DNA of 64,000 nt. It comes from Escherichia coli. Its GTDB lineage: Bacteria; Pseudomonadota; Gammaproteobacteria; Enterobacterales; Enterobacteriaceae. Below are positions 9,758 through 15,548 of this stretch, piece after piece; position 1 is the first letter of the stretch; each line of letters begins with the position of its first letter. The notes under the pieces were generated by a model. That model was given only the letters and a program-made list of their open reading frames with translations. It was not told the DNA's origin and did no database searches. The stretch lies in NCBI RefSeq assembly GCF_041886205.1, contig NZ_CP169029.1; one strand, 5' to 3'. A program made the position numbers and the translations under genes.

Positions 9758-11115
9758 TGAAAAGATTATCTATAACCGTCCGTTTAACCTTGCTTTTTAT
9801 ATTGCTGCTGTCTGTTGCTGGCGCTGGAATTGTATGGACTCTCTATAATGGCCTGGCAAGTGAGTTGAAATGGCGCGATGATACAACACTCATTAACCGG
9901 ACAGCGCAGATCAAGCAGTTGTTAATTGATGGGGTAAATCCAGATACGTTACCTGTGTACTTTAACCGGATGATGGATGTTAGTCAGGATATCTTGATCA
10001 TTCATGGTGATGGCATCAATAAAATTGTTAACCGGACGAATGTCAGTGATGACATGTTAAATAACATACCTGCTAGTGAGACAATCAGCGCAGCTGGCAT
10101 TTACAGAAGCATTATTAATGATACAGAGATAGATGCTTTACGAATTAATATTGATGAAGTTTCGCCATCATTAACGGTTACTGTGGCTAAATTGGCTTCA
10201 GCCAGACATAACATGCTTGAACAGTATAAAATTAATAGCATTATAATTTGCATTGTCGCCATTGTACTTTGCTCAGTATTAAGTCCGCTGTTAATCAGAA
10301 CGGGATTACGAGAGATCAAAAAGTTGAGTGGTGTAACGGAAGCGCTGAATTATAACGATAGCCGGGAGCCTGTTGAGGTTAGCGCATTACCGAGAGAACT
10401 AAAACCTCTTGGGCAGGCGTTGAATAAAATGCATCAAGCCTTAGTCAAAGATTTTGAACGCCTAAGTCAATTTGCTGACGATCTCGCTCATGAACTTAGA
10501 ACGCCCATTAATGCATTACTGGGTCAGAATCAGGTTACGCTCAGTCAAACCAGAAGTATCGCTGAATATCAAAAAACAATTGCCGGAAACATTGAAGAGC
10601 TGGAAAATATTTCGCGGTTAACAGAGAACATACTGTTTCTTGCCCGGGCAGATAAAAACAATGTTTTGGTAAAACTGGACTCGCTTTCTCTCAATAAGGA
10701 AGTCGAAAATTTGTTGGACTATCTTGAATATCTTTCAGACGAGAAAGAGATTTGCTTTAAGGTCGAGTGCAATCAGCAAATCTTTGCGGATAAAATTTTA
10801 CTGCAACGAATGCTATCGAATCTTATTGTTAATGCCATTAGATATTCACCAGAAAAATCGCGTATTCATATAACCAGTTTTCTTGATACCAACGGTTCTC
10901 TTAATATTGATATCGCCAGTCCTGGAACGAAAATACATGAGCCTGAAAAACTCTTCCGTAGATTTTGGCGGGGAGATAATTCGCGTCATTCCGTAGGTCA
11001 GGGACTTGGTCTTTCTTTAGTCAAAGCGATTGCCGAATTACACGGGGGAAGTGCTACGTATCACTATCTCAATAAGCATAATGTGTTCCGGATTACGTTA
11101 CCGCAAAGAAATTAA
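9757..11115 (+). CDS. hprS: Sensor histidine kinase HprS (452 aa)
   Basis: HAMP/HisKA/HATPase features (HELRTPINAL...), overlaps hprR stop by 1 nt (ATGA). Confidence 0.92.
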   Translation: MKRLSITVRLTLLFILLLSVAGAGIVWTLYNGLASELKWRDDTTLINRTAQIKQLLIDGVNPDTLPVYFNRMMDVSQDILIIHGDGINKIVNRTNVSDDMLNNIPASETISAAGIYRSIINDTEIDALRINIDEVSPSLTVTVAKLASARHNMLEQYKINSIIICIVAIVLCSVLSPLLIRTGLREIKKLSGVTEALNYNDSREPVEVSALPRELKPLGQALNKMHQALVKDFERLSQFADDLAHELRTPINALLGQNQVTLSQTRSIAEYQKTIAGNIEELENISRLTENILFLARADKNNVLVKLDSLSLNKEVENLLDYLEYLSDEKEICFKVECNQQIFADKILLQRMLSNLIVNAIRYSPEKSRIHITSFLDTNGSLNIDIASPGTKIHEPEKLFRRFWRGDNSRHSVGQGLGLSLVKAIAELHGGSATYHYLNKHNVFRITLPQRN

Positions 11116-11222
11116 CATAGGGCTTCAGTACGCCATAAATCAACCATGAAAAAACGCAGCCACGTCGTGAGTACTAACGCAGCTGCGATTGATTATGCGC
11201 TTACATTCAAACGTAACAGGGA

Positions 11223-12074
11223 TTAACCCGCGTAAGCTGCCAGCATTTCCTGCGCCGCCAGTTTACCCAACGCATTCGCTGCGAAAGGACTGTCGCCGGT
11301 GAGAACTTTACGGTCCTTATGTACTCGCCCGGTGATGTCGTCATTAATAATGTTCATGCCCATTTTCTTCAGCTCTTCGCCGAAGTACCAGGTGAGATGA
11401 CCCGGCATATAGCCTATCTCTGGCGTTTGTTTGTCTGCGGCGTCTGGGAATGCGCAAATGGAATAACCATTCAGTGGGTTATCGCCGTGGCGAAGCGCCA
11501 GAAAAGCCGCCGGGCCGTGGCAAAGGGAGATAACAAAACGGTCATTTTTGATTGCCCACTGTAAAGCAGCAGCCACGTCCTGGCTTTCTGGTAAACCAAT
11601 AAGTGCGCCATGACCACCAGGAACAAAGATTGCTGCATATTCGCTATCAGCGTTGAGGCTGGCGACAACATCCGCGAGTTTCTTCGGATTGCGGAACAAC
11701 GATTTATGCTGCTCAAAGAATGGCATTACTTTTTCATCTTTGTGCGGCATAGCCCAGTATTCAAACTTGGTCATCAGACCGGAAATGGTCGCCACTTCGA
11801 ATTCGAAACCTGCAGCATGGAGATGATACAACGGCAGCAACGTTTCAATCGGATGGTTACCAGTCGAGAACAGTTTTCCGTTATCGGTCGGCAAATAACG
11901 TTCGTCCGCGGCGATCACCAGAATTTTATGCTTACCGCGATACGGTTTTGGATAGTCCACGCCATCAAGATCAGAGACGGGACTGGTATATTGGCTAAGC
12001 GAATATTCTGAAGGGAAGAATGCATTATCTTCAGCAATATCGACCTGCGGATTTTTACTTGTTTGAACAGTCAT
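11223..12074 (-). CDS. hchA: Hsp31 glyoxalase / protein deglycase (283 aa)
   Basis: MTVQTSKNPQVDIAEDNAFFPSEYSLSQYTSPVSDLDGVDYPKPYRGKHKILVIAADERYL... full-length match. Confidence 0.95.
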   Translation of the reverse strand: MTVQTSKNPQVDIAEDNAFFPSEYSLSQYTSPVSDLDGVDYPKPYRGKHKILVIAADERYLPTDNGKLFSTGNHPIETLLPLYHLHAAGFEFEVATISGLMTKFEYWAMPHKDEKVMPFFEQHKSLFRNPKKLADVVASLNADSEYAAIFVPGGHGALIGLPESQDVAAALQWAIKNDRFVISLCHGPAAFLALRHGDNPLNGYSICAFPDAADKQTPEIGYMPGHLTWYFGEELKKMGMNIINDDITGRVHKDRKVLTGDSPFAANALGKLAAQEMLAAYAG

Positions 12075-12585
12075 AGTGTATTCCTTATTGTTGCTTAGTT
12101 AGGGTAGTCACTATATTTGCGACTGAGCTGGTCGCTATTTTTAACCAGGCTGGAAAATTGAGTCAATATATCGAAAGCGGTAGTCGGCGGGTGTAAGTAT
12201 GTAATGATGATGCTGCACTGGTGTTGAATATTATTCACGCCAAATTTTCCTTATTGAGCAACGTCGTCGCAAGTGGCCTCAATGATTTTAGACCATTATC
12301 AGAGGTACGGGGCGGCGGGGAGAGATTTAGTGCTGTGGAATATTGTGGTGCTGATGAATATTTATATCCCGGATTGGTAGAGAAAAAGCTTATTTCATGC
12401 ACTATTTTTGCAAATATTTCTATATGGGAAGCGTGTTTGTTACGGGTTAATTCATCAGAATGTGCATTTGGGGTGTTGGCTGGAAGAGTCGCTGGTAGAT
12501 GTTATTGTGCCAGCAGGGGCAGGGTAAGGTACTGTATCGATATGCTTTGGCAATTGCATGTGCCGCAGATGGAGATGAAATGCCA

Positions 12586-12624
12586 ATAAAAAAGCCTGAG
12601 TTCGATGAGGGACGAACTCAGGCT
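12586..12624 (-). terminator. Rho-independent terminator of yedS
   Basis: Perfect inverted repeat AGCCTGAGTTCG / CGAACTCAGGCT (12593-12624) followed on the minus strand by a T-run (plus-strand A-run 12586-12592). Confidence 0.55.
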
Positions 12625-12666
12625 AGTGTTAAGTTTTACAGTAACACGCCGCAGCGCGTTGGCTGA

Positions 12667-13881
12667 TTAGAACTGGTAGACTAAGCCCACAGCAACGATG
12701 TCATCGGTAGCGATGCCGTTGTTTGCGTAGAAGTCATCGTCGTTGTCCAGCAGGTTGATTTTGTAATCAACATAGGTGGACATGTTTTTGTTAAAGTAAT
12801 AGGTTGCACCAACCTCAACGTATTTAACCAGATCTTTATTGGTATAATGATAATTACCATTGTTGTACATTTCTTGACCACCTAAATCCTTACCTTTAGA
12901 TTGGAGGTAAGCAATTGAAGGACGCAGGCCGAAATCAAATTGGTACTGAGCAACAACTTCAAAGTTCTGAGTTTTGTTAGCGATACCACCGCCGCCAAGT
13001 TTCCCATCGGCTGAATGAGAGTCGCTGCTACCATAAGCGGTCATATTGCGAGTCTCTGCATACATTGCTGCTAAATATACATTGTTGGCATCGTATTTAG
13101 CACCAACAGTCCACGCTTCTGCAGTACCACCACCTGCATAGCTATTACCATAGAAATGATTGCCATCTCCATACCCACGAGCAGCTTGGTTATTGGAACG
13201 GTCAGAATTAGAGTAAGCAGCACCCAGACTTAAACCGAAGTCGAAGTCGTAGGAAGTAGACATACCGAAACCATCGCCATTTTCTTTAGCAAGGCTACGG
13301 CCATCTCCGCTGCCAGATCCTTCTTGGCCAAAGAGACTGTCACTGCCACTTTCATTATTACTCTGATATTGCAGCGCAAAGTTCAAGCCATCAACCTGAC
13401 CAAAGAAGCCATTGTTACGGTAGGTTGCAACACCGTTGGTACGACCGTTCATGAAATTGTCGGCACCAGCATAGGTATCGCCACCAAATTCTGGCAGCAT
13501 ATCGGTCCATGCTTCGATGTCATATACGACACCGTAGTTACGACCATAATCGAAAGTACCATTCTGACCAAAACCTAAACCTGCGAAAGCCAGACGGGTA
13601 GCAGAGTTATCTCCATCGCCTTCTGTGCCATTTGCTTGCAGGTTGTATTCCCACTGACCATAACCAGTGAACTGGTCAGCGATCTGAGTTTCACCTTTGA
13701 AACCGATACGGGCATATGACTTGTCGCCATCGCTGCCGGCATCATCAGAGAAGTAGTGCAGGCCCGCTACTTTTCCGTACAAATCCAGTTTATTACCATC
13801 TTTATTATAGATTTCAGCCGCATTTGCTGCGCCAGCAACTAATAACGCCGGGACCAGCATTGCCAGAACTTTTCTTTTCAT
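12667..13881 (-). CDS. yedS: General-diffusion outer-membrane porin of the OmpC/OmpF family, intact (404 aa from MKRKVLAML)
   Basis: Signal peptide [21 protein letters not shown], Gly/Asp/Asn/Tyr-rich beta-barrel composition, C-terminal ...VGLVYQF; SD AAGGGA before ATG at 13881. Confidence 0.85.
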
Positions 13882-14192
13882 TATGTATTCCCTTGTGATT
13901 ATAATCTTCATGAATATATCAATAAGTGCCGTTATCCAAAAAAAAGCACATTTGGATACTATTCTATGAAGTTCATTTTATTTTAAGGATTACATGTAAC
14001 AAATGTATTTAAAAGATTTCAAAATGTTTCTAATCTATTTAATATAATTCAGGATTATGAATTCTAAATATAAATATTCATGAAAATTATAAATGTATAT
14101 CAATATGTTATGAGTTGAGCGGAAGCATAGGGGGTATCAATGATTGTTGCGCCAAACGGCTGGTGTGATCACGCGCACATTAATGAAGGCAT

Positions 14193-14285
14193 AAAAAAAA
14201 GCCGGCATCATGCCGGCCCAAAAAATATAAACAAGACGATAAAAGGCTAATAACGGAAGCATCATGACACAGAATAATAAAAAGG
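14193..14285 (-). ncRNA. rseX: Candidate small RNA (RseX-like) ending in a Rho-independent terminator
   Basis: Minus strand: 7-bp stem GCCGGCA/TGCCGGC (14201-14217) followed by an 8-nt T-run. Upstream segment CGUUAUUAGCCUU is complementary (with G-U pairs) to the ompC RBS region as recalled. Position between yedR and yedS matches where rseX is reported in K-12. 5' end not determined. Confidence 0.45.
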
Positions 14286-14447
14286 TATAATTGTAATCAG
14301 TGCTAATATATTGATTGAATGAATTAATAAAGCCGATCTCAAAGATAAATAAAATCGCTCAAAACGATTTTTCCTGTATTCACTGCCGTTGCGCAAAAAT
14401 TATCTATTTGTTCAAAAAATGAGTGAGTCTTGACTGGCTCATCCAAT

Positions 14448-14813
14448 GTGGAAAAATGTGACTTTTATCACATAATAGTACTAAGTCTGAATTTTCCGGG
14501 TTATCTCAAAATGGAATACGGTTCGACAAAGATGGAAGAGAGACTCTCTCGCAGCCCTGGCGGCAAACTGGCTTTGTGGGCTTTCTATACATGGTGTGGC
14601 TATTTCGTCTGGGCAATGGCGCGTTACATCTGGGTGATGAGCCGGATCCCCGATGCCCCCGTGTCGGGATTTGAAAGCGATTTAGGTTCTACCGCGGGAA
14701 AGTGGTTAGGGGCACTGGTCGGCTTTTTATTTATGGCTCTGGTCGGGGCATTGTTAGGTAGCATTGCCTGGTACACTCGGCCTCGTCCCGCACGTAGCAG
14801 ACGCTATGAATAA
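14448..14813 (+). CDS. yedR: Small inner-membrane protein YedR (121 aa from GTG; alternative starts TTG 14430 or ATG 14511)
   Basis: ...MEYGSTKMEERLSRSPGGKLALWAFYTWCGYFVWAMARYIWV... two hydrophobic segments; start codon uncertain. Confidence 0.8.
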   Translation: MEKCDFYHIIVLSLNFPGYLKMEYGSTKMEERLSRSPGGKLALWAFYTWCGYFVWAMARYIWVMSRIPDAPVSGFESDLGSTAGKWLGALVGFLFMALVGALLGSIAWYTRPRPARSRRYE

Positions 14814-14852
14814 AAACTGCTAAGGTTGCGACTCTTTGGCAACGGAGCGCGT

Positions 14853-15548
14853 ATGGACTTACAACACTGGCAGGCACAGTTCGAAAACTGGTTGAAAAAC
14901 CATCATCAGCACCAGGACGCGGCCCATGACGTGTGTCATTTTCGTCGCGTCTGGGCTACGGCACAGAAGCTGGCGGCAGATGATGACGTCGATATGCTGG
15001 TGATTTTAACCGCCTGTTATTTCCACGATATTGTGAGCCTGGCGAAAAATCATCCGCAACGGCAGCGTTCTTCAATCCTGGCGGCAGAAGAGACGCGTCG
15101 CCTGCTCCGTGAAGAGTTCGTGCAATTTCCGGCGGAGAAAATCGAGGCCGTTTGTCATGCCATTGCCGCTCACAGTTTCAGCGCGCAAATCGCCCCCTTA
15201 ACAACGGAAGCTAAAATCGTCCAGGATGCGGATCGGCTGGAAGCCCTGGGGGCGATTGGCCTGGCGCGCGTGTTTGCCGTTTCAGGGGCATTGGGCGTGG
15301 CGCTGTTTGATGGCGAAGATCCGTTCGCACAGTATCGCCCGCTTGATGATAAACGCTACGCGCTGGATCATTTCCAGACTAAGTTGCTGAAGCTACCGCA
15401 AACCATGCAAACCGCAAGAGGCAAGCAGCTGGCGCAGCACAACGCGCATTTTTTAGTCGAGTTTATGGCGAAGCTCAGTGCCGAACTGGCGGGGGAGAAT
15501 GAAGGTGTCGATCACAAGGTGATAGATGCGTTTTCACCCGCGGGCTGA
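14853..15548 (+). CDS. yedJ: HD-domain phosphohydrolase YedJ (231 aa)
   Basis: [34 protein letters not shown]... HD motif; ATG at 14853 verified. Confidence 0.9.

Follow-up and report, generated by a model that had tools for sequence, protein, structure and literature searches.

The 592-bp spacer between hchA and yedS in Escherichia coli is very probably the remnant of an interval of about 1.2 kb that carried a gene for a 134-residue universal stress protein (usp). The distal ~250 bp of the spacer are an eroding relic of this gene, and the 122-codon cysteine-rich reading frame found there is accidental. The spacer was examined in a stretch of E. coli DNA of 64,000 nucleotides, which as a whole is referred to here as the window. 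An earlier note on this DNA had delimited the spacer at 12075-12666, and the coordinates of the two flanking reading frames bear this out:

11223-12074, minus strand: hchA
12075-12666: hchA-yedS spacer, 592 bp
12667-13911, minus strand: yedS, an OmpC-like porin reading frame, intact in the window
14194-14283, minus strand: rseX small RNA gene, upstream of yedS as in K-12 (Rfam RF01401 over its full length, 97.7 bits)

The order along the window is hprR and hprS (both plus strand), hchA (minus), the spacer, yedS (minus) and rseX (minus). The equivalent spacer of K-12 MG1655 measures 591 bp (2,035,244-2,035,834), and no annotated features were found in it. The spacer was present in 4,868 of the 5,426 complete E. 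coli genomes, at 93-100% identity and with a median of one place per genome. Being single-copy and poor in repeats, it was dropped as a candidate repeat or mobile element; apart from the stem of a terminator at the yedS end, the only repeats of note are a weak, imperfect inverted one where hchA starts (12073-12114, with 73% complementarity) and a trivial 15-nt direct one. Its GC content of 41-47% is lower than that of the flanking genes, and its plus strand is rich in G and T and poor in A and C (T183 G168 A151 C90), with a GC skew of up to +0.45. That the spacer is unusually long had been noted correctly; the reason had been missed, namely that a relic of usp, recognised by homology to the intact gene, fills the distal ~250 bp.

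The intact gene was found in other members of the genus. When GTDB was scanned for HchA relatives, with one genome per species, five non-coli Escherichia loci were obtained, in four of which yedS and hchA stand about 1.06-1.19 kb apart. In a blastn comparison of the spacer with the five loci, only its two ends matched. Between yedS and hchA, an intact 134-codon reading frame was present in L006 (labelled 'E. coli E69'), L007 (E. whittamii), L008 (Escherichia sp. E1V33) and L009, and also in the further assemblies L056-L063. In all of these usp-bearing loci the gene order is hchA(-) usp(+) porin(-): usp is divergent from hchA, convergent with yedS, and lies on the same strand as the 122-codon frame of the window. 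Its product matched the Pfam Usp family PF00582 over residues 1-124 with 38.4 bits (L008) and 28.4 bits (L006), the gathering cut-off being 24. Its nearest NCBIfam models were UspG (62.9 bits, cut-off 189) and UspF (36 bits, cut-off 166). The gene thus resembles the single-domain, UspG/UspF-like Usp proteins of E. coli in matching PF00582 and in having these two models as its closest, and since its scores fall far below both equivalog cut-offs, it is a paralogue distinct from UspG and UspF. Pairwise dN/dS values of 0.18-0.36, and variable sites distributed 22/12/44 over codon positions 1/2/3, point to purifying selection on the intact gene. The paralogue also seems to be narrowly distributed: in a search of 5.8 billion proteins, in which candidates had to share exact five-residue words with the query, eight relatives were found at E<=1e-5. 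NCBI lists one of the eight as 'universal stress protein [Escherichia coli]', and all contigs encoding it have the order hchA(-), usp(+), porin(-), drpB, yedJ. Outside Escherichia, usp beside hchA was absent from the retrieved loci of Citrobacter, Enterobacter, Pluralibacter, Rosenbergiella, Pantoea, Stenotrophomonas and other genera.

Alignment with the intact gene indicated that E. coli retains about 240 of the 405 nt of usp at 12339-12581, as four collinear blocks on the plus strand with their order kept:

12339-12441, plus strand: usp relic block 1, usp nt 10-113 (codons 4-38), from the MAFFT alignment and block map
12442-12486, plus strand: usp relic block 2, usp nt 245-289, followed by a 21-nt deletion
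12487-12521, plus strand: usp relic block 3, usp nt 311-345, followed by a 1-nt deletion
12522-12581, plus strand: usp relic block 4, usp nt 347-406, with the former TGA stop now AAA at 12578-12580

Block 1 is the strongest of the four. With positions 12339-12421 as the query, blastn aligned 85 nt to E. whittamii usp at 78% identity (58 bits, E 2.6e-12), while shuffled queries reached 18.8 +/- 2.6 bits and at most 29. Blocks 2-4 are only 62-66% identical to usp and are weak when taken singly (E 0.001-0.05); they were assigned on their collinearity with block 1, which is strong, and with the conserved terminator, and blastn returned collinear segments at usp 302-334 (the region of blocks 2-3) and usp 360-401 (block 4). 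At the peptide level, the tblastn matches hop between all three frames. In block 1, NIVVLMNIY was aligned with NIVIPVNIF of usp and SRIGREKAYFMHYF with SRDDREQAFLHAQF; in blocks 2-3, GLIHQNVHLG...WLEESLVDVIV was aligned with GFIHTYVHFGTLPEGIKKLAEQQLADVIV (GFIHTYVHFG...LAEQQLADVIV); and in block 4, IDMLWQLHVP was aligned with IDMLRQFSVP. Homology and synteny taken together, the relic is a significant, collinear, same-strand match at the syntenic hchA-usp-yedS position.

The lesions separating the relic from a functional gene comprise loss of the start, single-base indels (+1/-1/-1/-1), deletions of 131 and 21 nt, and loss of the stop. Block 1 has gained one nucleotide at 12364 and lost one after each of 12389 and 12409, and the original usp frame, read onward within it, meets a TAG at 12378-12380. 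The 131-nt deletion (usp nt 114-244) lies between blocks 1 and 2, and the 21-nt deletion (usp nt 290-310) between blocks 2 and 3. At the 12338/12339 junction about 420-430 nt are missing (usp -420 to +9), and with them the promoter region, the ribosome binding site and the start codon. Hence, although the E. coli relic is collinear with intact usp, it has neither a start codon nor an intact frame, unlike the Usp genes of PF00582.

These comparisons are consistent with the following history. The yedS-hchA interval of about 1.2 kb would once have held a UspG/UspF-like gene of 134 codons, transcribed away from hchA and towards yedS, with a terminator lying between this gene and the convergent yedS. 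Inactivated in the E. coli lineage, usp would have been eroding since: a deletion of ~430 nt may have removed its promoter region, ribosome binding site and first three codons, and the 131- and 21-nt deletions together with four single-base indels would have broken the remainder. The 122-codon cysteine-rich frame would be an accidental opening across this debris, presumably not translated into any conserved product. The working parts of the present spacer would be its two ends, the hchA promoter and leader on one side and the yedS terminator on the other, with the middle a neutrally evolving filler.

The loss of usp is fixed in E. coli. The intact 1185-bp interval was found at >=80% coverage in none of the 5,426 complete genomes; the best coverage was 35-36%, in two pieces spanning ~591 bp. 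When the intact usp gene alone served as the query, no match was returned from the E. coli genomes, as expected: against a database of 28 Gb, the 85-nt block narrowly misses the E-value limit. Within E. coli, nucleotide diversity (pi) over all sites of the relic is 0.082, compared with 0.068 at the third codon positions of hchA in the matching strains, 0.034 in the terminator and 0.019 in the hchA-proximal 146 nt (12075-12220). The relic thus evolves neutrally, at or above about the synonymous rate. In E. albertii (L005 2881-3396) the spacer is 516 bp long and contains neither usp nor any recognisable remnant of it. Its deletion end points differ from those of E. coli, and it keeps ~70 nt more of the hchA-side intergenic DNA, which suggests that usp was lost there independently.

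The reading frame that first drew attention to the spacer was present as the earlier note had described it:

12221-12589, plus strand: Cys-rich frame, GTG start, 122 codons, 8 Cys (6.6%)

It does run head-on into the yedS terminator, its TAA stop (12587-12589) lying inside the A-run just before the hairpin at 12593-12624. The note had preferred to regard it as non-coding, and had proposed comparison across strains and scoring of codon usage and of the ribosome binding site as ways to find out. If the frame encoded a real cysteine-rich small protein, for instance from a lineage-specific or newly born gene, its length would be an argument, as it exceeds 98% of dinucleotide shuffles: a frame of at least 122 codons arose in 1.75% of 2000 shuffles of the spacer, the mean longest frame being 67 codons, so that its length is only modestly unusual against chance. 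The abundance of G and T and scarcity of A and C on the plus strand lower the chance of a stop codon and raise that of the cysteine codons TGT and TGC. The other argument for a protein is annotation, since in a minority of genomes PGAP reports a 'hypothetical protein' on the plus strand. Most genomes have no call here, the calls that exist are four different ones (195, 213, 336 and 411 nt), and these sporadic calls are artefacts.

Comparison between strains speaks clearly against a protein. We used 18 E. coli spacers, picked to span the 93-100% identity range and not as a population sample, one of which (L039) came from the GTDB genome-contig scan as an E. coli-like contig of a metagenome-assembled genome (MAG) labelled Collinsella. 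The frame was intact in three of them, namely the window, its identical twin L001, and L044. It was broken in the other 15, where the frames from the equivalent GTG run to 36, 58, 78, 101 or 136 codons, making six different lengths in all. Among the 17 distinct E. coli sequences, the 88 variable sites inside the frame split 32/30/26 over codon positions 1/2/3, without the third-position excess seen in the first 66 codons of hchA in the matching strains (0/2/16), and nine indel columns fall in or beside the frame, with 1-nt indels segregating. Codon usage gave a score of -0.28 log2-odds per codon, below every one of the 23 long reading frames of the window (+0.38 +/- 0.10, minimum +0.056). The start is a GTG, and no Shine-Dalgarno sequence was found in the 25 nt upstream of it (AGTATGTAATGATGATGCTGCACTG). 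A Pfam scan of the 122-residue product and of four other spacer reading frames, from both strands, returned no match at E<=1. The non-coding view is thus supported by the strain comparison, the codon-position pattern, the codon usage and the missing Shine-Dalgarno sequence alike. A real cysteine-rich protein, to which we give next to no probability, appears essentially excluded by the strain comparison and is largely refuted.

The composition of the frame can be read from the block map. By frame arithmetic, its codons 1-39 are former intergenic DNA and the remainder is derived from usp. The ancestral usp frame coincides with it only at 12410-12441 and 12522-12578, some 30 codons, which leaves three quarters of the frame as out-of-frame usp debris or former intergenic DNA. 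At its end, the frame reads through the lost usp stop into the A-run of the terminator. Rather than a gene, it is a chance mosaic over usp debris and adjoining former intergenic DNA. The odd composition of its product, which the earlier note had pointed out, and its cysteines are accounted for by this mosaic origin together with the G/T-rich strand.

The suggestion that the spacer is regulatory DNA of hchA held for the hchA-proximal third or so, which is constrained in E. coli and conserved in the genus; it did not hold for the distal ~250 bp, which are usp relic. The following elements were distinguished upstream of hchA:

12075-12338, minus strand: hchA upstream region, the hchA-side part of the former divergent hchA-usp intergenic region
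12085-12082, hchA strand: candidate Shine-Dalgarno sequence AGGA, 7 nt before the ATG, from reading of the sequence
12115-12110, hchA strand: candidate -10-like TATAGT, invariant
12135-12119, hchA strand: palindrome GCGACCAGCTCAGTCGC, nearly invariant in seven aligned Escherichia sequences
12166-12161, hchA strand: candidate -35-like TTGACT, paired with a weak -10 AAAAAT at 12142-12137

When 12075-12338 was compared with Escherichia sp. E1V33, the first 111 nt were 89% identical, with identity falling to ~50% by 12283-12338. We infer that the hchA promoter and 5' leader are contained in the 150-240 nt or so that adjoin hchA. A consensus promoter scan of the spacer gave one match where 2.0 were expected from shuffles, and hence does not count as evidence. 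In the control region of hchA, the palindrome may serve as an operator or have a structural role; read on the plus strand, GCGACCAGCTCAGTCGC scores as terminator-like and is followed by TATTTTT. An upstream reading frame in the hchA sense (12095-12238, minus strand, 47 codons) was also considered and rejected: neither its starts nor its upstream stops agree between species, and the promoter DNA that it covers is the most conserved. It terminates 20 nt short of the hchA start, the final ~27 codons are free of stops in all seven Escherichia sequences, and it is probably a by-product of nucleotide conservation in the promoter.

One could extend the regulatory role to the whole spacer, distal part included, which would then be a long leader of hchA or an extended region for silencing or for the binding of nucleoid proteins. 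The GC content, lower than in the flanking genes, and the evident constraint on the hchA-proximal part would fit such a role. So would the control of hchA (Hsp31) itself: in the work of Mujacic and Baneyx (Mol Microbiol, 2006), H-NS is reported to silence the gene, and sigma-S and sigma-70 to drive it. The constrained 150-240 nt described here are where the promoter region of that work must lie; the work is not known to concern the distal relic. The distal 250 nt themselves argue otherwise, as they diverge at or above the synonymous rate with segregating indels and are demonstrably gene debris, and E. albertii is without the distal stretch entirely, has other end points, and has kept the proximal part. 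We therefore regard regulation by the whole spacer as unlikely. The relic reading instead narrows the DNA likely to be relevant to hchA regulation to the hchA-proximal 150-240 bp.

The other end of the spacer is occupied by a predicted terminator:

12583-12624, minus strand: yedS intrinsic terminator, hairpin 12624-12593, then T-run
12625-12666, minus strand: untranslated stretch from the yedS stop codon to the terminator, 78-94% identical to other Escherichia species

The hairpin has a perfect 12-bp stem with seven GC pairs and an 8-nt loop (-21.5 kcal/mol, z -5.4). On the yedS strand it is followed by U6 (UUUUUUAUU), and in the plus-strand reading of 12593-12624 only a patchy U tract comes after it. 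The sequence is nearly invariant across seven Escherichia sequences, and the hairpin with its U-run is predicted to terminate yedS. As a genus-conserved, GC-rich 12-bp hairpin between the former pair yedS and usp, it resembles the intrinsic terminators common to convergent genes, but unlike these it has a proper U-run on the yedS side only. With usp dead in E. coli, the terminator would now serve yedS alone.

A hairpin usable from either strand, in a long intergenic region near a known small RNA neighbourhood (rseX is 1.6 kb away), might also point to an RNA product of the spacer, either a small regulatory RNA or a cis-antisense one. We consider this highly improbable. The Rfam 15 covariance models, run over 10500-15000 at E<=1, gave no match inside the spacer and only two overlapping matches elsewhere, at 14193-14283: rseX with 97.7 bits and a sub-threshold RyhB match with 23.1 bits against a gathering score of 55. 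At the same threshold no Rfam match fell in the yedS-hchA interval of the intact locus that would indicate such an RNA, the only two, both sub-threshold, lying over the yedS 3' end and the terminator. Nor is there any conserved block beyond the hchA-proximal promoter region and the terminator, the central part being highly variable. There is a slim chance that the usp debris is not entirely inert. It might act as a proto-gene, with low-level transcription and translation, where a frame of 122-136 codons is open (the window, L044 and L003), or the loss of usp and of the ~430-nt control region might have rewired hchA regulation in E. coli with respect to other Escherichia.

The usp relic is a small new case of a familiar kind, the unannotated pseudogene relic in an intergenic region. 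It shares with other such relics of E. coli inactivation followed by deletional erosion, frameshifts and neutral drift, and like them it is recognisable only against relatives that keep the gene. The neighbouring yedS offers a contrast: it is an annotated pseudogene in K-12 and intact in the window, whereas the usp relic is broken in every E. coli examined and is annotated neither in K-12 nor by PGAP, in whose records we found no entry for it. A search of the literature on the yedS-hchA intergenic region, or on a usp pseudogene there, returned nothing relevant. The relic accounts for the odd length of an intergenic region that lacks annotation in the best-studied of bacterial genomes, and reveals a difference in gene content between E. 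coli and its sister species, in that a Usp paralogue beside the stress gene hchA has been lost in all E. coli examined. Its value is mainly one of housekeeping, and it will not surprise a specialist.

Several further observations were made on the locus. The HchA of the window is 98% identical to that of E. albertii and only 93-95% identical to that of the usp-bearing Escherichia species, and in the usp-bearing assemblies the gene beyond hchA encodes a family-9 glycosyltransferase and is not hprS; the hchA neighbourhood has been rearranged or exchanged between lineages. In the window, yedS comprises 414 codons from the first ATG, with a signal-peptide start, MKRKVLA, 10 codons in. In other strains it is annotated as 'porin' or 'OmpC', with lengths that range widely, between 1059 and 1215 nt. 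Two short contigs of the 'Collinsella' MAG (L017 and L039) carry hchA and the spacer at 94-99% identity to E. coli, and are almost certainly E. coli contamination of the bin.

Strain KBN10P04869 (L001) has a spacer 100% identical to that of the window, yet its hchA (L001 2150-3000) is annotated as frameshifted, at 851 nt, unlike the intact 852-nt frame of the window. Therefore, either the two are very close but non-identical genomes, or the KBN10P04869 record contains a sequencing error. In strain VG888-46E9 (L043 3052-4050), an IS1B adjoins the last ~50 nt of the spacer beside yedS, and an IS1-associated deletion has taken away hchA, hprS and hprR together with the 5' part of hiuH (uraH). Similar events may be behind some of the ~560 E. 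coli genomes in which the spacer is absent.
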